DNA of 64,000 bases from Escherichia coli O157:H7 (GTDB taxonomy: Bacteria; Pseudomonadota; Gammaproteobacteria; Enterobacterales; Enterobacteriaceae), in assembly GCF_013167455.1 (NCBI RefSeq), contig NZ_CP038328.1; one strand, given 5' to 3'. The position numbers and the translations under genes are program-made. This document shows positions 30,490 through 58,364 of the stretch, piece after piece (within the stretch, counting starts at the first letter, position 1; every line of letters begins with the position of its first letter). The notes under the pieces were generated by a model that worked only from the letters and a program-made list of their open reading frames with translations, did no database searches and was not told the origin of the DNA.

Positions 30490-30655
30490 CGTGGAGTTTC
30501 CTATATCAAACTTGATAATAGAGAAGTGGTCAGACAACTAAAAACGCAGTGACGGTATAACAAAGGACGGCAGGCAACAAATCATTACTGACAGTTTGTT
30601 GATTTTTCTCAAGGTTAATTCTCCTGACCCAGTTTGAGCCAGGAGAGCTGCTAAA

Positions 30656-37964: not shown

Positions 37965-38180
37965 ATTAAGTTACCTTCTTATAAATTAATACAGATTAAT
38001 CCTGGTTATTTGCTTTATTTATCACCAGTCATCCGGTATAGTTCTTCATAATCTCTGCAAAATCATGGTGTTGTAATATTCTCTCATCACTCTCCATCAA
38101 ATTTTCTTTTTTTCTCCATAATTGGCGCAAAAGTGTTTTTTACACTTTCATTGTTTTACCGTTGCTCTGATTAATTGACG

Positions 38181-40388: not shown

Positions 40389-40408
40389 TGCTGGTTATCT
40401 ATCCAGTG
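40389..40408. promoter_or_regulatory. LexA (SOS) box CTG-N10-CAG upstream of cho
   Basis: GCTGGTTATCTATCCAGTG about 15 bp upstream of the cho start codon; cho is a known SOS gene. Confidence 0.55.
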
Positions 40409-40469
40409 TAACAGCCGGGAAGCGATTAAAAAAGAGGCGGGTCGATGACAAAGGTTACACCGTCTGACG

Positions 40470-40572
40470 TGCTACGCCTGTCAGGCCTATTCGACTCCTG
40501 CAATGTATTGAATTTGCATAGTTTTGTAGGTCGAATAAGGCGTTCACGCCGCATCCGGCGTGAACAAATTAC
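40470..40572. repeat. BIME/REP cluster between cho and nadE
   Basis: Palindromic units CGCCTGTCAGGCCTATTCGAC and TGTAGGTCGAATAAGGCGTTCACGCCGCATCCGGCGTGAACA. Confidence 0.65.
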
Positions 40573-40604
40573 TCTTTTTTGCACAATCCAATAGGTGCAA
40601 ATTA

Positions 40605-41432
40605 TTACTTTTTCCAGAAATCATCGAAAACGGTAATTGGCGGACGGCGTTTATGTTCGGTTTTCAGATACCAGTTCTCTATTGTTCTGGCGACCTGTTG
40701 AGGTACGTTTTTCCCTTCCAGATAGTCGTCGATATTGTCATAGGTCACGCCGAGTGCCACTTCATCTGGCAGAGAAGGGCGATCATCTTCCAGATCGGCC
40801 GTTGGCGCTTTCTTATAAAGGTGTTCCGGGCAACCTAATGCTGCCAGTAACTGTTTACCCTGACGTTTGTTGAGACGATACAGTGGATTAATGTCCGTAC
40901 CGCCGTCACCATATTTAGTGAAGAATCCGGTAATGGCTTCTGCTGCATGATCGGTGCCCACCACGACACCGCTGGTCATACCCGCAATGCTATATTGTGC
41001 TTTCATCCGCTCACGCGCTTTTTCATTGCCACGGACAAAATCGCTCAGTTCAATGCATGCTTCCCGCAATGCCTGCTCGCTAGCCAATACCGCGCCCTTG
41101 ATATTAACGGTTAATACGCGATCCGGTTGAATAAAGGCAATGGCATCCTGGCAATCTTGTTCGTCGGCCTGAACACCATAGGGCAGGCGTACGGCAATAA
41201 ATTGCAGTGATTCGTTGCCGGTTTCCTGGCGCAGCTCATTAATCGCCATCTGGCACAGCTTACCGGCAAGCGTGGAGTCCTGACCGCCGCTGATCCCGAG
41301 CACCAGTGATTTAATGAACGGATAAGTTTGCAGGTAGCTTTTCAGAAAATCGACACTACGACGAATTTCCTCTTCAGCATTAATCTGCGGTTTTGCGCCC
41401 AGCGCCTTTATTATTTGTTGTTGCAATGTCAT
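40605..41432 (-). CDS. nadE: NH3-dependent NAD+ synthetase
   Basis: 275-aa ORF with PP-loop SGGQDS. Confidence 0.9.
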
Positions 41433-41633
41433 TGAACCCCTCCAGACAGAAAAGACAAAACTTCCTTAAAGCTAACCCGTTGCTACTGAAACGACAAGCG
41501 ACAGCGGGCTGAATGGTGGTTAAAACGTCATACAGGAATCCTCTGAAAGCGGAGCCGTTTCGTTCATGGGCTTGAAAAAGCGCCCAATGTATTCCAGGCT
41601 TATCTAACACGCTGATAAACAATAGGACGGAAT

Positions 41634-41972
41634 ATGAACAAGAATATGGCAGGAATTCTGAGTGCAGCGGCGGTATTAACCATGCTGGCGGGTTGTACGG
41701 CTTATGATCGTACCAAAGACCAGTTTGTACAGCCTGTGGTGAAAGACGTCAAAAAAGGCATGAGCCGGGCGCAGGTTGCACAAATTGCGGGTAAACCTTC
41801 GTCTGAAGTGAGCATGATCCATGCTCGTGGTACTTGCCAGACCTACATCCTGGGTCAACGTGATGGTAAAGCAGAAACCTACTTTGTCGCGTTAGATGAT
41901 ACCGGACATGTCATCAACTCCGGTTATCAGACCTGTGCTGAATACGACACTGATCCACAGGCTGCGAAGTAA
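41634..41972 (+). CDS. osmE: osmotically inducible lipoprotein E
   Basis: 112-aa ORF with lipobox LAGC. Confidence 0.85.
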
Positions 41973-42003
41973 TCACTTCGTCTGAAAGCTTGAGTAACAA
42001 CGG

Positions 42004-42031
42004 AAACCGGCCATTGCGCCGGTTTTTTTTT
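42004..42031 (+). terminator. intrinsic terminator after osmE (stem AAACCGGC/GCCGGTTT plus T-run)
   Basis: Read directly from the sequence. Confidence 0.6.
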
Positions 42032-42073
42032 GGCCTGAGTTCTTAATTATCTTCGCGAATTATTTGCCCGAAA

Positions 42074-42089
42074 TGTGAAGAGGGTCATA
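42074..42089. promoter_or_regulatory. candidate CRP site TGTGA-N6-TCATA upstream of chbB
   Basis: One-mismatch CRP half-sites about 190 bp upstream of chbB; the chb operon is known to be CRP dependent. Confidence 0.35.
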
Positions 42090-42271
42090 ACCGCAGGTCA
42101 AGGAGAGACAATTTATAAGGTCAAAGAAATACTATTGCTCAGGTCTATACCGTATACTCCTTTCAGCCACAAAAAAAGTCATGTTGGTTTCGCAAGTTAC
42201 CCAGAGCATGGAAGCAGGTTAAGGCTTGCGGAGTGTCTGGCTGACAGATAATCGTCGATGAGGGCAGTTTT

Positions 42272-42592
42272 ATGGAAAAGAAACACATTTATCTGTTTTG
42301 TTCTGCGGGCATGTCTACCTCTTTACTGGTATCAAAAATGCGCGCACAGGCAGAAAAATATGAAGTTCCGGTCATTATTGAAGCATTTCCGGAAACACTG
42401 GCTGGTGAAAAAGGTCAGAATGCCGATGTCGTGTTATTAGGGCCGCAGATTGCTTATATGTTGCCCGAAATCCAGCGTTTGTTACCCAACAAACCGGTTG
42501 AAGTAATTGACTCGCTGCTTTATGGCAAAGTCGATGGTTTAGGCGTGCTTAAGGCTGCGGTTGCAGCGATTAAAAAAGCCGCAGCAAATTAA
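42272..42592 (+). CDS. chbB: PTS chitobiose-specific EIIB
   Basis: 106-aa [23 protein letters not shown] with active-site Cys. Confidence 0.9.
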
Positions 42593-42636
42593 TTTATTTT
42601 AAATTTTCCCGTCAAAGAGTTATTTCATAAATCAAT

Positions 42637-42661
42637 ACCGCAATATTTAAATTGCGGTTTT
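42637..42661 (+). terminator. hairpin plus T-run between chbB and chbC (possible intra-operon attenuator)
   Basis: CCGCAAT-N6-ATTGCGG followed by TTTTT. Confidence 0.4.
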
Positions 42662-42676
42662 TAAGGGTATTTTTCT

Positions 42677-44035
42677 ATGAGTAATGTTATTGCATCGCTT
42701 GAAAAGGTACTCCTCCCTTTTGCAGTTAAAATAGGAAAGCAGCCACACGTTAATGCAATCAAAAATGGCTTTATTCGCTTAATGCCGTTAACCCTTGCGG
42801 GGGCCATGTTTGTATTAATTAACAACGTTTTTCTAAGCTTTGGGGAGGGGTCGTTTTTTTATTCCTTAGGTATTCGCCTCGACGCCTCAACCATTGAAAC
42901 ACTTAATGGTCTGAAAGGTATTGGCGGCAACGTATATAACGGAACATTAGGGATAATGTCTTTAATGGCACCGTTCTTTATTGGCATGGCGCTGGCAGAA
43001 GAGCGTAAAGTCGATGCGCTGGCGGCTGGGTTGTTATCCGTTGCAGCATTTATGACCGTCACCCCATATAGTGTCGGTGAGGCCTATGCGGTTGGCGCAA
43101 ACTGGTTAGGTGGGGCGAATATCATCTCCGGGATTATTATTGGCCTGGTGGTGGCAGAAATGTTTACCTTTATTGTCCGCCGCAATTGGGTCATTAAACT
43201 GCCCGACAGCGTACCTGCTTCAGTATCGCGTTCCTTCTCGGCATTAATTCCCGGCTTTATTATTCTTTCCGTGATGGGGATTATTGCCTGGGCGTTGAAT
43301 ACCTGGGGCACCAACTTCCATCAGATCATTATGGATACCATCTCAACCCCACTGGCATCGTTGGGTAGCGTGGTGGGCTGGGCCTATGTGATCTTTGTTC
43401 CACTGCTCTGGTTCTTCGGTATTCATGGCGCGCTGGCGCTGACCGCACTGGACAACGGCATTATGACGCCGTGGGCGCTGGAAAATATCGCGACCTATCA
43501 GCAATATGGTTCCGTCGAAGCGGCGCTGGCAGCCGGTAAGACCTTCCATATCTGGGCCAAGCCGATGCTGGACTCCTTTATTTTCCTTGGAGGCAGTGGT
43601 GCGACTTTAGGCCTGATCCTGGCTATCTTTATTGCCTCTCGCCGTGCTGATTATCGTCAGGTGGCAAAACTGGCGCTGCCGTCCGGCATCTTCCAGATTA
43701 ACGAACCGATTCTGTTTGGTCTGCCAATTATCATGAACCCGGTGATGTTTATCCCGTTTGTACTGGTACAACCGATTCTGGCGGCAATCACCCTGGCAGC
43801 GTACTACATGGGCATTATTCCTCCGGTGACCAATATTGCACCGTGGACCATGCCAACCGGTCTGGGAGCCTTCTTTAACACCAACGGTAGCGTCGTCGCA
43901 TTGCTGGTTGCACTCTTCAACCTTGGTATCGCAACGTTAATTTATCTGCCCTTTGTTGTGGTGGCTAACAAAGCACAAAATGCGATTGATAAAGAAGAGA
44001 GCGAAGAAGATATCGCTAACGCCCTGAAATTTTAA
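42677..44035 (+). CDS. chbC: PTS chitobiose-specific EIIC
   Basis: 452-aa polytopic membrane ORF. Confidence 0.9.
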
Positions 44036-44085
44036 TCGATGCCGGTACGGGTAATCGTGCCGGTAAGAAAAGAGAGGAACGATGT

Positions 44086-44436
44086 ATGATGGATCTCGAT
44101 AATATTCCCGATACGCAAACGGAAGCTGAAGAGCTGGAAGAAGTGGTGATGGGGCTTATCATCAACTCCGGACAAGCGCGCAGCCTGGCGTATGCCGCAC
44201 TGAAACAGGCGAAGCAGGGCGATTTTGCCGCAGCAAAAGCCATGATGGATCAGTCACGGATGGCATTGAATGAAGCGCATCTGGTACAGACGAAACTGAT
44301 TGAAGGCGATGCGGGCGAAGGTAAGATGAAAGTGAGTCTGGTGCTGGTCCACGCTCAGGATCATTTAATGACGTCCATGCTTGCGCGTGAACTGATTACT
44401 GAATTAATTGAGCTTCATGAAAAACTGAAGGCATAA
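44086..44436 (+). CDS. chbA: PTS chitobiose-specific EIIA
   Basis: 116-aa ORF. Confidence 0.9.
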
Positions 44437-44443
44437 GGAGTCG

Positions 44444-45286
44444 ATGATGCAGCCAGTGATTAACGCGCCGGAAATTGCCACTGCCCGAGAACAGCAGTTG
44501 TTTAATGGCAAAAACTTCCATGTGTTTATCTATAACAAAACTGAGAGTATCAGCGGACTGCATCAGCACGACTATTATGAATTTACTCTGGTATTAACCG
44601 GGCGTTATTTCCAGGAGATTAACGGTAAGCGCGTGTTACTGGAACGGGGCGATTTTGTTTTTATTCCGTTAGGTTCGCACCATCAAAGTTTTTATGAGTT
44701 TGGTGCCACGCGCATATTGAACGTTGGGATCAGTAAACGCTTTTTTGAGCAGCATTACCTGCCATTGTTGCCTTATTGCTTTGTAGCTTCGCAGGTATAC
44801 CGGACCAATAACGCTTTTCTCACCTATGTGGAAACAGTGATTTCTTCATTGAATTTCCGCGAAACAGGGCTGGAAGAGTTTGTTGAGATGGTTACTTTTT
44901 ATGTCATTAACCGTTTACGTCATTACCGCGAAGAACAGGTGATTGATGATGTACCGCAGTGGCTGAAAAGTACGGTAGAAAAGATGCATGATAAAGAGCA
45001 GTTTAGTGAATCGGCGCTGGAGAATATGGTGACGTTGTCAGCCAAATCACAGGAATATTTGACGCGGGCGACTCAACGATATTATGGCAAAACGCCAATG
45101 CAGATTATTAATGAAATCCGTATTAATTTTGCCAAAAAACAACTGGAAATGACCAACTATTCAGTGACGGATATTGCGTTTGAGGCCGGTTATAGTAGCC
45201 CGAGTTTGTTTATTAAAACGTTTAAGAAATTAACGTCCTTTACGCCTAAGAGCTATCGTAAGAAATTGACTGAATTTAATCAGTAA
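44444..45286 (+). CDS. chbR: AraC-family regulator of the chb operon
   Basis: 280-aa ORF with C-terminal AraC-type helix-turn-helix. Confidence 0.9.
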
Positions 45287-45391
45287 GTCGTTATACCTGA
45301 CAATTCACATATCTGTCCTGTTGCTGGATTATTTATGTCCGGGGGGGGCAGATATGCCAGATATCAGTATTCTGTACTGAAGGGAGAAATT

Positions 45392-46744
45392 ATGAGCCAG
45401 AAATTAAAAGTCGTCACTATTGGTGGCGGGAGCAGCTATACCCCGGAGTTACTGGAAGGATTTATTAAGCGTTATCACGAATTGCCGGTCAGCGAATTAT
45501 GGCTGGTGGATGTCGAAGGTGGCAAAGCTAAACTGGATATTATTTTCGATCTCTGCCAACGGATGATTGATAACGCTGGCGTCCCGATGAAGCTTTATAA
45601 AACGCTGGATCGCCGCGAAGCATTGAAAGATGCTGATTTCGTTACTACCCAACTGCGCGTTGGCCAATTACCGGCGCGTGAACTGGATGAACGTATTCCA
45701 TTAAGTCATGGTTATCTTGGTCAGGAAACCAACGGCGCGGGCGGTCTGTTTAAAGGTCTGCGTACCATTCCGGTGATTTTTGACATCGTAAAAGATGTCG
45801 AAGAACTTTGTCCGAATGCATGGGTGATTAACTTCACTAACCCGGCGGGAATGGTCACTGAAGCCGTTTATCGTCATACCGGATTTAAACGCTTTATCGG
45901 CGTGTGTAATATTCCGATCGGCATGAAGATGTTTATTCGCGATGTTCTGATGCTGAAAGACAGCGATGATTTATCTATCGATCTGTTCGGCCTCAACCAT
46001 ATGGTGTTCATTAAGGATGTGCTGGTAAATGGCAAGTCGCGCTTTGCCGAATTGCTTGATGGTGTGGCATCCGGGCAGTTAAAAGCATCTGGCGTTAAAA
46101 ATATTTTCGATCTGCCATTTAGCGAAGGCTTAATTCGTTCTCTGAATCTGTTGCCGTGTTCTTATTTGCTTTATTACTTCAAGCAAAAAGAGATGCTGGC
46201 TATTGAAATGGGCGAATACTACAAAGGCGGCGCACGAGCGCAGGTAGTACAGAAAGTCGAGAAACAACTTTTTGAGCTGTATAAAAACCCGGAGTTGAAA
46301 GTTAAGCCGAAAGAACTGGAACAGCGCGGTGGGGCTTATTACTCTGATGCAGCGTGCGAAATGATCAACGCTATCTACAACGATAAGCAAGCAGAACATT
46401 ACGTTAATATCCCGCATCATGGGCATATTGATAATATTCCGGCAGACTGGGCGGTAGAAATGACCTGTACGCTGGGGCGCGATGGCGCGACGCCACATCC
46501 GCGCATTACGCATTTCGATGATAAAGTGATGGGGCTGATTCACACCATTAAAGGCTTCGAGATTGCTGCCAGCAACGCCGCACTTAGCGGAGAATTTAAC
46601 GATGTGTTACTGGCGCTAAACCTTAGTCCGTTGGTGCATTCCGATCGCGATGCTGAGCTGCTGGCACGCGAGATGATTCTGGCGCACGAGAAATGGCTGC
46701 CAAATTTTGCCGACTGCATCGCAGAGCTTAAAAAAGCACATTAA
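45392..46744 (+). CDS. chbF: family 4 6-phospho-beta-glucosidase (NAD/Mn dependent)
   Basis: 450 codons from MSQKLKVVTIGGGSSYTPEL; AAGGGAG ribosome-binding site. Confidence 0.9.
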   Translation: MSQKLKVVTIGGGSSYTPELLEGFIKRYHELPVSELWLVDVEGGKAKLDIIFDLCQRMIDNAGVPMKLYKTLDRREALKDADFVTTQLRVGQLPARELDERIPLSHGYLGQETNGAGGLFKGLRTIPVIFDIVKDVEELCPNAWVINFTNPAGMVTEAVYRHTGFKRFIGVCNIPIGMKMFIRDVLMLKDSDDLSIDLFGLNHMVFIKDVLVNGKSRFAELLDGVASGQLKASGVKNIFDLPFSEGLIRSLNLLPCSYLLYYFKQKEMLAIEMGEYYKGGARAQVVQKVEKQLFELYKNPELKVKPKELEQRGGAYYSDAACEMINAIYNDKQAEHYVNIPHHGHIDNIPADWAVEMTCTLGRDGATPHPRITHFDDKVMGLIHTIKGFEIAASNAALSGEFNDVLLALNLSPLVHSDRDAELLAREMILAHEKWLPNFADCIAELKKAH

Positions 46745-47515
<771 letters not shown>

Positions 47516-47525
47516 GTAAGGTGGT

Positions 47526-47553
47526 AAGGTCACTCCCCAGGGGACGTGACCTT
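47526..47553. terminator. bidirectional hairpin between convergent chbG and katE
   Basis: AAGGTCAC...GTGACCTT stem with inner CCCC/GGGG pairing. Confidence 0.5.
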
Positions 47554-47561
47554 ATCCATAT

Positions 47562-49823
47562 TTACGCCGGAATTTTGTCAATCTTAGGAATGCGTGACCA
47601 CACGCGGTGTGCTGCCATCAGCGTTAACAGTTCATCCATAAAACTACCGTCGGCGCTGTCAGCTTCCACAATCCCTTCTTCACCCTGGTCAGCGACCTTG
47701 ATTGTTGCTTTAAACTTGCGCGCGTCTCCCGCCAGCGCAATCGGTTTAAGGTGTTTGTAGGCTTCCATCAGGTAGTAGTTGGCATCGCCGTTGTCAGCGA
47801 TATCCGCGATATTGCCGCAAGGGACAATGACCGCATCGACCGTCAGCGAAGGCGCACCGGCAAAGGTAGCGGCTATAGGCAACACCGTACCGTCATCCGC
47901 AGTCACTTCACCCATTCGGGAGTAGAGCAGTTTGGCATGAACGCCTTTGGCCTTCAGCGCCTTGAGAATGGCCAGAAGGTCTGCCGATCTCACTTCATCA
48001 TTAAGTAAAATCGCTACCACGCGACCTTTCACATCACCGTCAGGAATGGCGTACAAACTTAAGGATGGATCCTTTTTCAGACCGTTGACGTCCGGAGGTG
48101 GGGTGATATTCAGCTGGTCGTCAGTCAGTTCGATACCGAGATTTTTCGCCACCGCCTGGGCCAGAGTGAGATCAATATGCGCCAGCTGGTCAACAACGCG
48201 CTCACGAATATACGGACGAACGACTTTGCTTAACTCAAAACTGAAACCATCGACAATATGGCGCTGCTCGAATGGCGTCTGACTTAGCCAGAACAGACGC
48301 GGATGGGAATAATATTCGCCAAAAGATGGACTGCGCTCGCGAACTTTATTTCCTTCCACGCGTTCCTGATATGATTCAAAACCGCCGCGTTTCGGTCCCG
48401 GCGGTGTTTCGCGCGGCCAGTTATCGTTGATCGAGTTCGGTTCGTAATTCGCCGGGTTAGTGTCGATCCCCATACGATGCATGCCGTCACGCTGGAAATT
48501 ATGGTAAGGGCAGGTTGGGCGGTTAATCGGAATCTCATGGAAATTCGGCCCACCAAGACGACTGATTTGTGTATCGGTATAGGAGAACAAACGTCCCTGC
48601 AACAGGGGATCGTTGGTGAAGTCCAGACCAGGAACAATATGACCTGGATGGAATGCTGCTTGTTCGTTTTCGGCAAAGAAGTTATCCGGATTGCGATTGA
48701 GCACCATTTTGCCGACACGCTGAACGGGCACCAGTTCTTCCGGGATAAGTTTAGTTGGATCGAGAAGATCGAAGTCGAACTTGAATTCATCTTCTTCAGG
48801 AATCAACTGGAAGCCCAGTTCGTATTCCGGAAAATCGCCTGCTTCAATGGCTTCCCACAACTCGCGGCGGTGGAAGTCCGGGTCACGTCCGGTTAGTTTT
48901 TGTGCTTCATCCCAAACGAGTGAGGCTTTACCTGCCAGTGGTTTCCAGTGGAAACGTACAAACGTTGCCTTCCCTTCGGCATTAATCAGGCGGAAGGTAT
49001 GAATACCAAAGCCTTCCATGGTGCGGTAACTGCGGGGGATGCCGCGATCCGACATCGCCCACATCACGTTGTGCAGAGTTTCAGGTTGCAGAGAAACATA
49101 ATCCCAGAAAGTATCGTGGGCGCTTTGCCCTTGTGGAATTGCCCAGTGTGGTTCTGGTTTTACCGCATGAACAAAATCGGGGAATTTATGCGCATCCTGG
49201 ATAAAGAAGATTGGCGTGTTATTGCCAACGAGGTCAAAAATACCCTCTTCAGTATAGAACTTGGTGGCAAAGCCACGGATATCACGCACGGTATCGGCAG
49301 AGCCAGCACCACCCTGAACGGTAGAGAACCTAACAAATACTGGGGTGATTTTGTTCGGATCTGAGAGGAAATCCGCTTTGGTGATATCGCTTAAGCTTTT
49401 ATATGGCTGGAAATAACCGTGAGCGGCTGATCCACGTGCATGAACAATACGTTCCGGGATGCGCTCATGGTCAAAGTGGGTGATTTTCTCGCGCAGAATA
49501 AAATCTTCCAGCAGCGTTGGACCACGGCTACCGGCACGCAGTGAGTTTTGATCGTCGGCGATGCGCACGCCCTGATTAGTGGTCAGCGCATAATTTTCAC
49601 TGCCTTTGCGTACGTCTTCCAGAGAATTAAGTTTTTCGTTACGCGTATCAGGGGCTTTCAGGCTCCCTGAGGCGGTAGGTTGTGCACCTGGCGGTGTTGG
49701 TTCAGCCGCTGGACGATGAGAGCCGTCCTCAGGTGCCAGTGAGTCCATCCCCGGTTTCGCTTCGCTGGAATCGTGTAGTGGTGACTGGTGCTGATGTGGG
49801 TTCTTTTCGTTTTGTTGCGACAT
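47562..49823 (-). CDS. katE: catalase HPII
   Basis: 753-aa ORF, large-subunit monofunctional catalase. Confidence 0.95.
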
Positions 49824-50026
49824 TGAACTCGTCTCCTTAATTTATTACTGAAAGGGCCGCTGTTTTGGTCAAAAAACTCTCTAACTATAGACCACCAGCC
49901 AGACCCCGCTTCGGAGACTATTCTGGAAACGGTGTTATGAAATACACGCAAAGCGGGACGTACAGGGGCTAAATCGGCTAAACTACAGTTTTTCTGATTT
50001 TTAATATGCGTTTAGTGAAGCCAGTA

Positions 50027-50269
50027 ATGAAGAAACCGCTCCGCCAGCAAAACCGCCAGATTATTAGCTATGTCCCACGCACGGAACCCGCGCCGCCAGA
50101 ACATGCGATAAAGATGGATTCGTTTCGTGATGTCTGGATGCTGCGTGGCAAATATGTTGCGTTTGTACTGATGGGAGAGTCATTTCTGCGCTCACCGGCG
50201 TTTACTGTGCCTGAATCCGCCCAGCGTTGGGCAAATCAGATCCGCCAGGAAGGGGAAGTGACTGAGTAA
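50027..50269 (+). CDS. cedA: cell division modulator CedA
   Basis: 80 codons from MKKPLRQQNRQIISYV; an in-frame upstream ATG at 50006 is the alternative start. Confidence 0.85.
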   Translation: MKKPLRQQNRQIISYVPRTEPAPPEHAIKMDSFRDVWMLRGKYVAFVLMGESFLRSPAFTVPESAQRWANQIRQEGEVTE

Positions 50270-50545
50270 AGATTACGTACCTCCCGGTTTTGCCGGGAGT
50301 TACATGGCCTGAAATTCTCTATTTCATTGCTACATTCATTCAAACCACCTGTAACAAAAAGCTGCCTTTGACGATCTATTGCTATAAATAAGTGATCTTT
50401 TTTCTTTAATTGTTTATTTATTTTAAAATGGTTAAGTTTTGCTAATCATGATGAGCTATTTTTGATAGTTCATCCTGTGGCGTCGCTCTTAAACTTATAT
50501 TGTAAATGACTTAGATTTAAATGAGATAATAATTTTGTTAACAAT

Positions 50546-51313
50546 ATGAGGCGGGAGATGTTTTCTACAAACTTAATACAGAGTAATTATGGTGATTTAA
50601 ATATTAAAAGCCTGGCTTTCGACTCTTTTAAAGAAAGGCTGCAGTCTACTATGACAGCACTCACTTTCTTTATATCAACGGGTCAATGTGACTGCGATGA
50701 AATAGCAGAATCAAACTTTAATTATATGATTGCCTATATGTCTAACATTAACTATGATGCCTCAAAGCCAGGAGCGCCAGCACTTAGTTTTGATACATAT
50801 CTGCAGGACAATGTTAAATATAGAGTAATAATTAATAATCTTTATGGTAGTGAAATTCGGATAAGAGGTATAAATAAAGATTTTATTGGAATGGATGTCA
50901 CTTCTGTATTTCGCCCAGAAAAAATGACCAATTTGATCAGTATAAAAAACAGGTTGGTTATTCACTATTTAAGGACTATATACTATGAACAATATTATAT
51001 ACATCCTGTCGGGAGCATTTTTGCTGCGATTCAAAAAAATGAGAGTCTCCTAAAGTTTCCTTCGATAATATCAATGCTTAATATCAATCTTCTTTTTAAT
51101 CCACTAAATCTTCCGGGAATGGGAAGTGGTATACTTGAAGATATTATGAGTATTCCAGATAGTTCACTTAGAAAACGTCTCGGGTATGAGGTTTTAAGCT
51201 TCTCGCTACAGGCACATTCATTGAGCCAGGAATGTATTGATAAGTTGGACATTTTTTCGCTGACGATCTGTTTAAATATGAGTCAGTATGCATCGCCGCG
51301 ATGGAACATTTAA
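50546..51313 (+). CDS. ydjO: uncharacterized protein in an AT-rich stretch
   Basis: 255-aa ORF; start possibly at the second Met (50558), which has a GAGG ribosome-binding site; markedly AT-rich. Confidence 0.7.
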   Translation: MRREMFSTNLIQSNYGDLNIKSLAFDSFKERLQSTMTALTFFISTGQCDCDEIAESNFNYMIAYMSNINYDASKPGAPALSFDTYLQDNVKYRVIINNLYGSEIRIRGINKDFIGMDVTSVFRPEKMTNLISIKNRLVIHYLRTIYYEQYYIHPVGSIFAAIQKNESLLKFPSIISMLNINLLFNPLNLPGMGSGILEDIMSIPDSSLRKRLGYEVLSFSLQAHSLSQECIDKLDIFSLTICLNMSQYASPRWNI

Positions 51314-51320
51314 AAAGTAA

Positions 51321-51353
51321 GGCAACGGCCCCTTTACAAAACGGACCGTTGCC
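51321..51353. terminator. bidirectional hairpin between convergent ydjO and ydjN
   Basis: GGCAACGG...CCGTTGCC inverted repeat. Confidence 0.5.
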
Positions 51354-51363
51354 AGCATAAGAA

Positions 51364-52755
51364 TTAATGGTGTGCCAGTTCGGCGTCGTCTTCGCTATCC
51401 AGAATGGCTTTATCGGTTTGCTTCAGCCACTGGCTGGTCAGCGTGCCAGCTGTCATCGAGCCACTAACGTTTAGCGCCGTACGGCCCATGTCGATAAGCG
51501 GTTCAACGGAGATTAACAGCGCCACCAGGGTTACTGGCAGGCCCATCGCAGGCAGCACAATCAGTGCGGCGAAAGTTGCACCACCACCGACACCGGCAAC
51601 GCCTGCGGAGCTAACGGTAACAATACCGACCAGCGTCGCAATCCACATCGGGTCCAGCGGGTTAATGCCAACCGTAGGCGCAACCATCACCGCCAGCATT
51701 GCCGGATACAAACCGGCGCAGCCGTTCTGACCAATGGTCGCACCGAAAGAGGCGGCGAAACTGGCGATGGATTCAGGAACACCGAGTCGACGCGTTTGTG
51801 CTTCCACATTCAGTGGGATAGACGCAGCACTGGAACGGCTGGTAAAGGCAAACGTCAGCACAGGCCATACCTTACGGAAGTACTTCAGCGGACTCACGCC
51901 ATTAATGCCCAGCAGAATGCCATGCACTGCAAACATAATCAGCAGACCGAGGTAGGACGCGACAACGAAACTTCCCAGTTTGATGATGTCTTGCAGGTTA
52001 GAACCTGCAACCACTTTGGTCATTAGTGCCAGAACGCCGTAAGGGGTCAACTGCATGACCAGGCGAACTAGTTTCATCACCCAGCTTTGCAGGGTATCGA
52101 TAGCGGTTAAGACGCGTTCACCTTTCGGCGCATCATCCTTCAGCAGTTTCAGCGCAGCTACACCGAGGAATGCGGCAAAAATTACCACGCTGATAATTGA
52201 CGTCGGATTGGCTCCGGTCAGATCGGCAAACGGGTTTTTCGGGATAAAGGACAAGACCAGCTGCGGAACGCTCAGGTCAGAGACTTTACCAACATAGTTA
52301 CTTTCGATGGCGTTCAGACGTGCAGTTTCTGCACCACCCTGAACCAGACCTTCAGCCGTCAAACCAAACAGGTTGGTTACCAGCACACCGACCAGCGCCG
52401 CAATCAGCGTGGTAAACAAAAGCGTACCAATGGTCAGAAAACTGATTTTGCCTAACTGAGATGCGTTATGCAGACGGGCAACCGCGCTCAGAATAGAGGC
52501 GAAGACTAACGGCATAACGATCATTTGCAGCAGTTGAACATAGCCGTTACCAACAATGTTAAACCACTGTACAGAATCTTTAAGTACCTGGCTGTCAGAA
52601 CCATAAATGGTATGCAGGGCAAGGCCAAAAACCACACCCATCACCAGACCCACCAGCACTTTTTTCGCCAGACTCCACTGTTTATGGCGGGTCTGAGCCA
52701 GCGCAAACAGCAGTACAACGAACACCACGATGTTCGCAATTAATGGAAAGTTCAT
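51364..52755 (-). CDS. tcyP: sodium:dicarboxylate symporter family transporter (L-cystine importer)
   Basis: 463-aa polytopic ORF; named ydjN in older annotation. Confidence 0.85.
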
Positions 52756-52887
52756 CCCCGTTCTCCTGATCTTATTATTTCTATCACTGCGTAGCAGTCA
52801 TAGTGTTGGCGCAAGATTAACAGAACTGTGAGCTGGCTCTTATATTCAAATGGAATTGCTTATTACAGAAAGGCGATTTTTGCCTTT

Positions 52888-53478
52888 TTAGTATTCAACC
52901 TGATGCTTAATAAGCCGATGAAACTGGATCTGCAAGGTATTGATCATTTGCGATGACCAACGAACAGCGCTGTTTTCGGGTAATGAATGAGGCATCCATA
53001 CCGACCAGACAAATAATGCCATGCAGATAAAACGTTCCAGTTGGTTACCCTTTTGGGGAACCAGGATAGGCAAGCGGAAACGCCAGCGGCATGGCCAGAG
53101 CAGGGGAACACCGGCGGGTGTCAGCATATCGGCAAGTATGTGGCTTAAATAACCCAGCACCATTCCTTGTAGCGCATCAGCCGGAATGAACCAGCTTTCA
53201 GGAACCTTAAGGTAAAAGGTTGCCAGCAGCGCAAATACCGCCAGCAGACTGTGGGTAAAACCACGATGCCCAAAAGCGCGGGCGATCGGTTTTGATATCC
53301 ACTTTAATCGCTGCCCAAGAAACGACTTTGGGTGATCGATGTCCGGTAACAAACACGTCAGGATTGCGGAAGGGACAATATGCCACCAGTCACCCTGTGC
53401 CAGCACGGGCGTCAGCTCGGCATTTTTGGCAAATACCGCACAAGCAATAGAAAAGAGAAGGTGACCTTCCGCCGTCAT
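52888..53478 (-). CDS. ydjM: LexA-regulated inner-membrane protein
   Basis: 196 codons from MTAEGHLLFSIACAVFA; LexA box immediately upstream. Confidence 0.8.
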   Translation of the reverse strand: MTAEGHLLFSIACAVFAKNAELTPVLAQGDWWHIVPSAILTCLLPDIDHPKSFLGQRLKWISKPIARAFGHRGFTHSLLAVFALLATFYLKVPESWFIPADALQGMVLGYLSHILADMLTPAGVPLLWPCRWRFRLPILVPQKGNQLERFICMALFVWSVWMPHSLPENSAVRWSSQMINTLQIQFHRLIKHQVEY

Positions 53479-53502
53479 GATAAAACTCACTAAACTGTCG
53501 AT

Positions 53503-53522
53503 ACGTACAGTATAGGATTTTT
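53503..53522. promoter_or_regulatory. LexA (SOS) box CTGT-N8-ACAG upstream of ydjM
   Basis: AACTGTCGATACGTACAGTA, 25 bp upstream of the ydjM start; a second weaker palindrome follows at 53519-53540. Confidence 0.6.
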
Positions 53523-53640
53523 ATACAGTGCACGGAAGTGGTGACGGTGTAACTCTTTCTCTTAAATTGACGATTAATCCGTCAGTTGAATGCAAATTCA
53601 GATAAAGAACCAGGGGCAGCGTGATCACTGCCCCTGGTCA

Positions 53641-54309
53641 TTAACCGAGAAGGTCTTTTGCGGTGAGTTCTGTCAGCGATGAGAGTTTGACGTTTGCTAA
53701 TACAAAACGTGGATCATTTTGCGCTTCTGGCGCAGGAACGACGATGGAACGCATGCGGGCTGCTTTAGAGGCGATCATGCCATTTACCGAATCCTCCAGC
53801 GCTACGCAGGTCAGTGGGTCAACGCCCAGTTTTGCTGCGCAGTCGAGATATACTTGCGGATGCGGCTTGCTGTAAGGCAGTTTTTCGGCCGAGGCGAGGG
53901 CATCGAAACTGTCGCGTAAGTCAAACATGGTCAACACTTTTTCCAGCATATGTAGTGGTGACGCGGAGGCCAGTCCCACCAATAAACCTTGTTCTTTGCA
54001 TAACGCAACGGCTTCGCGCACGCCTGGTAATAATGGACGTGTCTCTTCAACCAGTGAAATGGCACGGGCAATAACCCGTTCTACTACTTCCTGACGGCTT
54101 GGCCCATTCCACGGTTGCCGGGCGTACCAAAGATCGACCACCATATCGATGCGTAAACCTAAGGTGTCCGGCAGCTCGTTACGACGGGAGATATCCACCC
54201 CCAGGCTTGCCATCACATCCAGTTCGGCTCGATCCCATAAAGGTTCTGAGTCGATAAGTAATCCATCCATATCAAAAATTGCAGCAAGAATCTGACGCGG
54301 GGTTGACAT
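53641..54309 (-). CDS. yniC: HAD-superfamily sugar phosphatase
   Basis: 222-aa ORF with HAD motif I (AAIFDMDGLLIDSE). Confidence 0.85.
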   Translation of the reverse strand: MSTPRQILAAIFDMDGLLIDSEPLWDRAELDVMASLGVDISRRNELPDTLGLRIDMVVDLWYARQPWNGPSRQEVVERVIARAISLVEETRPLLPGVREAVALCKEQGLLVGLASASPLHMLEKVLTMFDLRDSFDALASAEKLPYSKPHPQVYLDCAAKLGVDPLTCVALEDSVNGMIASKAARMRSIVVPAPEAQNDPRFVLANVKLSSLTELTAKDLLG

Positions 54310-57605: not shown

Positions 57606-58364
57606 ATGAAGCTTTTGAAGACAGTTCCTGCCATCGTTATGTTGGCGGGGGGCATGTTTGCGTCACTGAATGCAGCTGCCGATGATTCCGTTTTTACTGT
57701 CATGGACGATCCTGCCAGCGCTAAAAAACCTTTCGAAGGTAATCTGAACGCAGGGTATCTTGCACAATCAGGCAATACGAAAAGCTCCTCACTTACGGCT
57801 GACACCACCATGACCTGGTATGGACAAACCACTGCCTGGTCGCTGTGGGGGAACGCCAGTAATACTTCTTCTAATGATGAGCGTTCTTCAGAAAAATATG
57901 CGGCGGGCGGGCGTAGCCGTTTTAATTTAACTGATTATGACTATTTATTTGGTCAGGCAAGCTGGCTGACAGACCGTTATAACGGCTATCGAGAGCGCGA
58001 TGTGTTGACCGCGGGTTATGGTCGTCAGTTTTTGAATGGCCCGGTACACAGTTTCCGCTTTGAATTCGGTCCAGGTGTGCGTTACGACAAATATACCGAC
58101 AATGCCAGTGAAACTCAGCCGCTGGGCTATGCCTCCGGTGCTTATGCATGGCAGCTTACTGACAACGCTAAATTTACGCAGGGTGTTTCCGTCTTTGGCG
58201 CGGAAGACACAACGCTGAACTCCGAAAGCGCATTAAATGTTGCTATTAATGAGCATTTTGGACTGAAGGTGGCTTACAACGTCACATGGAACTCTGAACC
58301 TCCAGAGTCTGCACCGGAACATACCGACCGTCGGACAACCTTATCGCTGGGCTACAGCATGTAA
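57606..58364 (+). CDS. ydiY: outer-membrane beta-barrel protein (DUF481)
   Basis: 252-aa ORF with signal peptide and C-terminal aromatic residue pattern. Confidence 0.8.
   Translation: MKLLKTVPAIVMLAGGMFASLNAAADDSVFTVMDDPASAKKPFEGNLNAGYLAQSGNTKSSSLTADTTMTWYGQTTAWSLWGNASNTSSNDERSSEKYAAGGRSRFNLTDYDYLFGQASWLTDRYNGYRERDVLTAGYGRQFLNGPVHSFRFEFGPGVRYDKYTDNASETQPLGYASGAYAWQLTDNAKFTQGVSVFGAEDTTLNSESALNVAINEHFGLKVAYNVTWNSEPPESAPEHTDRRTTLSLGYSM

Follow-up and report, generated by a model that had tools for sequence, protein, structure and literature searches.

Two closely spaced palindromes resembling the binding site of LexA, the repressor of the SOS response, lie upstream of ydjM in Escherichia coli O157:H7, and this locus raises the question of whether both of them serve as operators, how exactly they are placed with respect to the gene, and which other signals may share their bases. 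As suggested by our analysis of the window (the whole stretch of 64,000 nucleotides that was analysed), the ydjM promoter carries two LexA operators, a reading to which we give a probability of about 0.88; the sites, their scores and their conservation are documented below, and LexA binding and SOS induction are taken from the literature. The two motifs are the already published LexA pair of ydjM, and the finding is in this respect a rediscovery.

The ydjM locus

A region of about 1.6 kb around the two motifs showed 100% identity with E. coli O157:H7 strains and was found in 5,423 of 5,426 complete E. coli genomes. The genes and the boundary of the intergenic region are as follows.

52888..53478, minus strand: ydjM coding sequence, 196 amino acids, with ATG at 53478 (open reading frame list; RefSeq annotation of the identical O157:H7 locus; K-12 b1728; Pfam)
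51364-52755, minus strand: tcyP/ydjN, annotated
53641-54309, minus strand: hxpB/yniC, annotated, with its stop codon at 53641-53643
53608..53639, minus strand: terminator-like hairpin of the upstream gene hxpB/yniC, whose 14-pair stem (9 G-C pairs) precedes a T-rich tail

The terminator-like hairpin of hxpB/yniC marks the boundary of the ydjM regulatory region. From the ydjM ATG to 120 nt upstream, an interval that includes the whole operator and promoter, the sequence of K-12 MG1655 equals that of the window, and published K-12 results are therefore directly applicable to the ydjM promoter studied here. The operators of the two strains show no difference; two substitutions lie farther upstream, at the hxpB terminator (inside it and immediately behind it).

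The preliminary description of this DNA had presented the gene product as a membrane protein of unknown function. Annotation of the protein does exist, however: it matches the Pfam family YdjM (PF04307, E = 7e-36), and its product is named metal-dependent hydrolase in RefSeq. YdjM can thus be described as an inner-membrane, YdjM-family putative metal-dependent hydrolase.

Position and register of the two LexA boxes

Both LexA boxes were assigned to the strand of ydjM.

53512..53493, minus strand: LexA box 1, the stronger site and the nearer to the gene, TACTGTACGTATCGACAGTT, with the core CTGT-N8-ACAG at 53495-53510
53530..53511, minus strand: LexA box 2, the weaker, upstream site, CACTGTATAAAAATCCTATA, with the consensus distal half CTGTAT and with CTA, not CAG, as the proximal half

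Read along the ydjM strand, the order of elements is box 2 (weak), box 1 (stronger), a Shine-Dalgarno-like GTGAG and the ATG, with box 1 and box 2 located 14 and 32 nt upstream of the ATG, respectively, and both of them downstream of the hxpB terminator. The two 20-mers share 2 nt (the terminal TA), with 18 bp from one dyad centre to the other. Compared with the operator dyad of E. coli type, CTG-N10-CAG with an AT-rich centre (consensus TACTG(TA)5CAGTA), box 1 fits in full and box 2, reading CTG-N10-CTA, has one consensus half only. The pair also shows the layout known from colicin and lexA promoters, where a strong and a weak site are adjacent or overlap at their ends: at ydjM the overlap is 2 nt and the scores are 14.6 and 12.1 bits.

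The CTGT-N8-ACAG box quoted in the preliminary description is present, as ACTGTCGATACGTACAGT at 53494-53511 with its core at 53495-53510, but the range of 53503-53540 given there for the pair is shifted by about 9 bp and splits box 1 in half. The accompanying distance of 25 bp from the ydjM start is correct if counted from the dyad centre, and not for the box itself, the core of which ends 16 nt and the 20-mer 14 nt before the ATG. Likewise, the second, weaker palindrome proposed there corresponds to a real weaker LexA site that had been placed in the wrong register: in the 21-mer put forward, CAGTATAGGATTTTTATACAG (53508-53528), the CAG belongs to box 1 and self-complementarity is limited to 14 of the 21 positions, and the true site is box 2 as listed above. 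The broader proposal, that ydjM as an SOS gene is preceded by a pair of neighbouring LexA operators, is borne out by the literature and by conservation.

Strength of the match to known LexA sites

The bare pattern CTGT-N8-ACAG occurs once in the window, against 0.77 occurrences expected, and is not significant alone. Far better evidence came from a LexA position matrix built from 18 independent E. coli boxes (PMC3009722, Table 4), among which ydjM is not included. With this matrix, box 1 (14.6 bits) and box 2 (12.1 bits) took ranks 2 and 3 of the 63,981 positions of the window, rank 1 belonging to the cho/ydjQ box at 40389-40408, which is itself one of the training sites. In simulated sequence, 0.11 sites of the grade of box 1 and 0.38 sites of the grade of box 2 are expected per 64 kb, and a second site of such quality would fall within 30 bp of a given site with a probability of about 4e-4. 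With this matrix, box 1 had a heterology index (HI) of 10.2-11.0 and box 2 one of 9.75-13.2; the published index of box 1 in E. coli is 9.0. Since the training sites span 1.8-12.2 in HI and 13.1-28.4 bits in score, box 1 lies inside their range and box 2 at or just below its weak end.

Three further observations concern the window outside the ydjM promoter. Its best match to the LexA matrix, TGCTGGTTATCTATCCAGTG at 40389-40408 (CACTGGATAGATAACCAGCA on the minus strand), is the known SOS box of cho/ydjQ and precedes the GTG start codon of cho (40375) by 13 nt; with this box and those of ydjM, the window holds two genes of the LexA regulon, cho and ydjM. The fourth-best match, TGCTTTATTTATCACCAGTC at 38011-38030 (10.4 bits), has no CTG, is apparently located between spy and astE, and is probably due to chance. 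The sole Rfam match at gathering score in the whole window is the small RNA ES036 (CssrF; 42.9 bits, 40483-40525, minus strand), which lies between nadE and cho, shortly upstream of the LexA box of cho. In addition, mapping of coordinates to NZ_AP018488.1 by ydjM and by cho gave results differing by about 1.3 kb (window about 40400-52800), and strain PV15-279 therefore has, relative to the window, about 1.3 kb of extra DNA at some place between cho and ydjM, a length that would fit an insertion sequence.

Conservation of the two-box layout

Scanning of one genome per species yielded 80 orthologous ydjM loci (74 distinct sequences), which come from about 25 Enterobacteriaceae genera and whose proteins show 85-99% identity. 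Box 1 was present in all 80 loci with both half-sites nearly invariant, and box 2 reached at least 8 bits in 77 of them. The offset of 18 bp was exact in 79 of the 80 loci, even where insertions 3' of box 1 alter the distance to the ATG. The three loci with box 2 below 8 bits were those of Citrobacter amalonaticus (L013) and Intestinirhabdus alba (L025), in which the CTGTAT half has been lost, and of Leclercia (L062), where a 1-bp insertion breaks the 18-bp spacing as well. In the columns of the alignment, there is little or no variation at CTG and CAG, the bases critical for LexA, and more at the centres of the boxes. The pattern CCTATACTG-N10-CAG occurred exactly once per ydjM locus, in all loci.

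Within E. coli, the 55-bp operator region was found in 5,418 of 5,426 genomes, 3,611 of which fall in the band of at least 99% identity, that is, are identical at the 55 bases. Box 1 of Escherichia (TACTGTACGTATCGACAGTT, 14.6 bits) is weaker than that of most other genera (TACTGTATGAATTGACAGTT, 19.3 bits), where the typical scores are 19.3 bits for box 1 versus 8-12.5 bits for box 2.

Published evidence for LexA control of ydjM

Lists of the E. coli LexA regulon have included ydjM since 2000, that of a 2019 review of the SOS response among them, and both reviews and comparative papers cite its tandem boxes. According to PMC4951493, tandem LexA-binding sites at E. coli ydjM were reported experimentally in 2000 by Fernandez de Henestrosa et al., and PMC4576408 gives CACTGTATAAAAATCCTATA as the second site of ydjM (b1728). 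In Salmonella Typhimurium, the ATG of ydjM (STM14_1605) is preceded by two SOS boxes, one 14 nt away with an HI of 9.12 and the other 32 nt away with an HI of 12.85 (PMC8072944). This geometry is shared with the window; box 1 of Salmonella (TACTGTATGAATTGACAGTT, 19.3 bits), however, resembles the consensus more than that of Escherichia does (14.6 bits).

The recorded induction of the gene is modest. Salmonella ydjM was 2.1-fold upregulated with nalidixic acid, the lowest value among 46 listed genes, and the GFP signal of its reporter fusion was not detectable (PMC8072944). In E. coli, AZT caused a 2.5-fold increase of ydjM, and its level was 8.6-fold lower with non-cleavable LexA (lexA3) (PMC11228462); a multi-omics time course of the SOS response recorded a log2 change of the ydjM transcript of up to 2.6 (PMC11002266). 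The modest induction of ydjM argues against especially tight repression, which had been anticipated from the two adjacent sites. In Staphylococcus aureus, a gene with the YdjM motif is likewise regulated by LexA, and the link between YdjM and the SOS response is therefore an old one.

Candidate promoter at the junction of the boxes

Among the promoter-like elements of the region, the best conserved is found where the two boxes meet. The octamer CCTATACT (53509-53516, minus strand) was invariant in all 74 distinct orthologous sequences, though its CTA is a non-consensus half for LexA, and the two species lacking the distal half of box 2 still retain it. This invariance suggests that CCTATACT probably doubles as a -10 hexamer, TATACT, and the following candidate elements were derived from the alignment.

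53514..53509, minus strand: candidate -10 hexamer TATACT, across the junction of box 2 and box 1, proposed from the invariance of CCTATACT
53532..53537, minus strand: TTCCGT as a weak -35 candidate, separated from TATACT by 17 bp, proposed from the sequence CTTcCG, which is largely invariant across genera

The candidate -10 hexamer is preceded by C, as in sigma-S-preferred promoters. The candidate -35 hexamer matches TTGACA at 2 of 6 positions. In 66 of the 74 distinct sequences, TTCCGY-17-TATACT was the top pair of sigma-70 type, each time at this position; its score of 6.5 bits is no better than the best of random sequence (6.8 +/- 2.0). A built-in promoter scan of 53400-53700 returned no sigma-70 site, and no start site for ydjM or at 18101xx was found in the supplements searched, which belong to papers on Cappable-seq, SMRT-Cappable-seq and a UV tiling array.

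Other hexamer pairs were considered and set aside. Genomic SELEX places a sigma-70 holoenzyme site in the ydjM spacer with the guessed hexamers CTGAAA-17-ATTAAT further upstream, and this pair is not conserved across genera. The pair GTTACA-17-(C/T)ACTGT reached a mean of 3.1 bits only and is destroyed in the two species with half of box 2 lost. For TATAAA within box 2 as a -10 hexamer, there is no -35 hexamer at a workable spacing. Taking these candidates together with the invariance of the junction, we infer a weak promoter with a -10 hexamer built from the operator junction and a start near 53502.

Proposed mode of repression and comparison with other LexA-controlled promoters

Two LexA dimers bound to boxes 2 and 1 would cover 53530-53493, about 38 contiguous bp. 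LexA bound in this way could occlude the spacer, the -10 hexamer and the start site of the weak promoter (about -28 to +10). Upon DNA damage, the RecA-stimulated self-cleavage of LexA would free the promoter and lead to a modest induction of YdjM. The low expression of ydjM and its modest induction fit such a weak promoter occluded by LexA. The position of the promoter, the steric occlusion and any cooperativity between dimers at ydjM are elements that we infer, and they should be read at that strength.

The colicin operators provide a close parallel, and they share with ydjM a good and a degenerate site whose 20-mers overlap at the terminal positions. For the colicin genes, which PMC4951493 contrasts with ydjM, that paper refers to Gillor et al. 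(2008) for cooperative binding of LexA to strong and weak overlapping sites, and it also documents cooperative binding to the tandem sites of lexA promoters. In contrast to the colicin case, for which alone of the two cooperativity has been demonstrated, ydjM belongs to the chromosomal core genome and its induction is small. Several close LexA boxes are also found at lexA, recN and dinI, as at ydjM, with offsets in Salmonella of 21 bp for lexA, 18 and 22 bp for recN and 23 bp for dinI (PMC8072944); the 18 bp of ydjM equal the offset of the proximal recN pair. The output of these promoters differs widely, with induction in Salmonella of 39-fold for recN and 23-fold for dinI versus 2.1-fold for ydjM (PMC8072944). 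Unlike the sites of lexA, recN and dinI, the weak site of ydjM seems to form part of the -10 region as well.

Alternative readings of the two boxes

The alternative that survives best accepts both boxes as LexA sites and holds that they are occupied independently, the second adding occupancy and repression being no tighter than that of two weak sites. An offset of 18 bp corresponds to about 1.7 helical turns, which would not bring the two dimers to the same face of the DNA, and the small induction ratios are also in agreement with independent binding. On the other hand, a geometric constraint is suggested by the spacing, which does not vary in 79 of the 80 loci from about 25 genera, cooperativity is documented at the colicin sites and at the tandem sites of lexA promoters (PMC4951493), and the recN pair of Salmonella has an equal 18-bp offset (PMC8072944). 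The constancy of the 18-bp spacing across genera is only suggestive as a hint of cooperativity, and we consider independent occupancy a tenable reading that deserves substantial, though minority, weight.

A second alternative restricts the operator function to box 1 and explains the retention of box 2 by its role as promoter spacer and -10 hexamer, its resemblance to a LexA half-site being incidental. Several features of box 2 are in line with this explanation: the AT-rich TATAAAAA followed by CCTATACT would make up the spacer and -10 region, the proximal half reads CTA and not CAG, CCTATA is invariant even in the two species without the CTGTAT half, and box 2 varies less at its centre than box 1 does (entropy 0.39 versus 0.55), which would not be predicted from LexA binding alone. 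However, about 71 of the 74 distinct sequences agree with the LexA consensus at the distal (C/T)ACTGTAT, 73 of 74 retain the CTG-N10 register, and box 2 holds matrix rank 3 of 63,981. Moreover, tandem binding has been reported experimentally (as cited in PMC4951493), and the strong and weak overlapping sites of colicin genes described in the same paper demonstrate that such a pair is a functional LexA design. A single operator at ydjM is therefore improbable in our judgement. The remaining alternative, that the motifs are chance palindromes with no regulatory role, could draw on the expectation of 0.77 bare matches per window, but it is refuted by the conservation and expression data, along with the matrix ranks, the adjacency statistics and the published LexA dependence, and we give it virtually no credence.

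A conserved block upstream of box 2

Conservation of the ydjM intergenic region extends beyond the operators.

53566..53533, minus strand: conserved upstream block of about 34 bp, consensus TTTGTGACAAAGAGTTACACCGTCACCTCTTCCG, with the invariant core GTTACAnCGTCAC at 53553..53541

With a mean consensus agreement of 0.93 and 16 invariant columns, the block is nearly as conserved as the operators across the approximately 25 genera, and the next 22 nt upstream of it drop to an agreement of 0.64 with no invariant column. The block holds three GTNAC motifs, the first (distal) of which, GTGAC, is degenerate (AAGAG) in K-12 and O157. We know of no motif, among those of CRP, TyrR, CpxR, OmpR/RstA, PhoB, UvrY and other regulators, that fits the block both in sequence and in spacing. 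A literature search for the invariant 13-mer and for the block sequence found no paper containing either of them.

An RNA element was considered as well and rejected: Rfam has no family for the ydjM intergenic region or the upstream block, and the predicted RNA fold of this region was not significant (z-score -0.98).

A copy of the 13-mer with one mismatch, GTTATACCGTCAC, is located in the xthA-ydjX intergenic region (30561..30549, minus strand). It ends 60 nt before the ydjX ATG (30489), and the 13-mer of ydjM ends 63 nt before its own ATG. Matches to the 13-mer with one mismatch numbered three in the window versus 0.47 expected, one of them within a coding region at 58273, and the copy at ydjX may be due to chance. 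A homologue search with YdjX returned, among the matches listed, only E. coli proteins with 96-98% identity.

These observations lead us to a tentative proposal with two parts, namely that the non-consensus half of box 2 is held invariant as the -10 hexamer of the promoter, and that the upstream block binds a second, so far undescribed activator which might be shared with ydjX. Taken as a whole, we regard this proposal as speculative and rather unlikely to be correct.

Implications

As a discovery the present result carries little weight, and it is best seen as a confirmation and clean-up of a known regulatory pair. What it adds is the correct strand, coordinates and register of the two boxes, together with a family-wide view of their architecture, in which two LexA boxes are kept 18 bp apart. 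If the proposal of a shared operator and promoter were true, the same bases at ydjM would act as operator and as promoter, and the weak LexA site would be barred from evolving towards the consensus.
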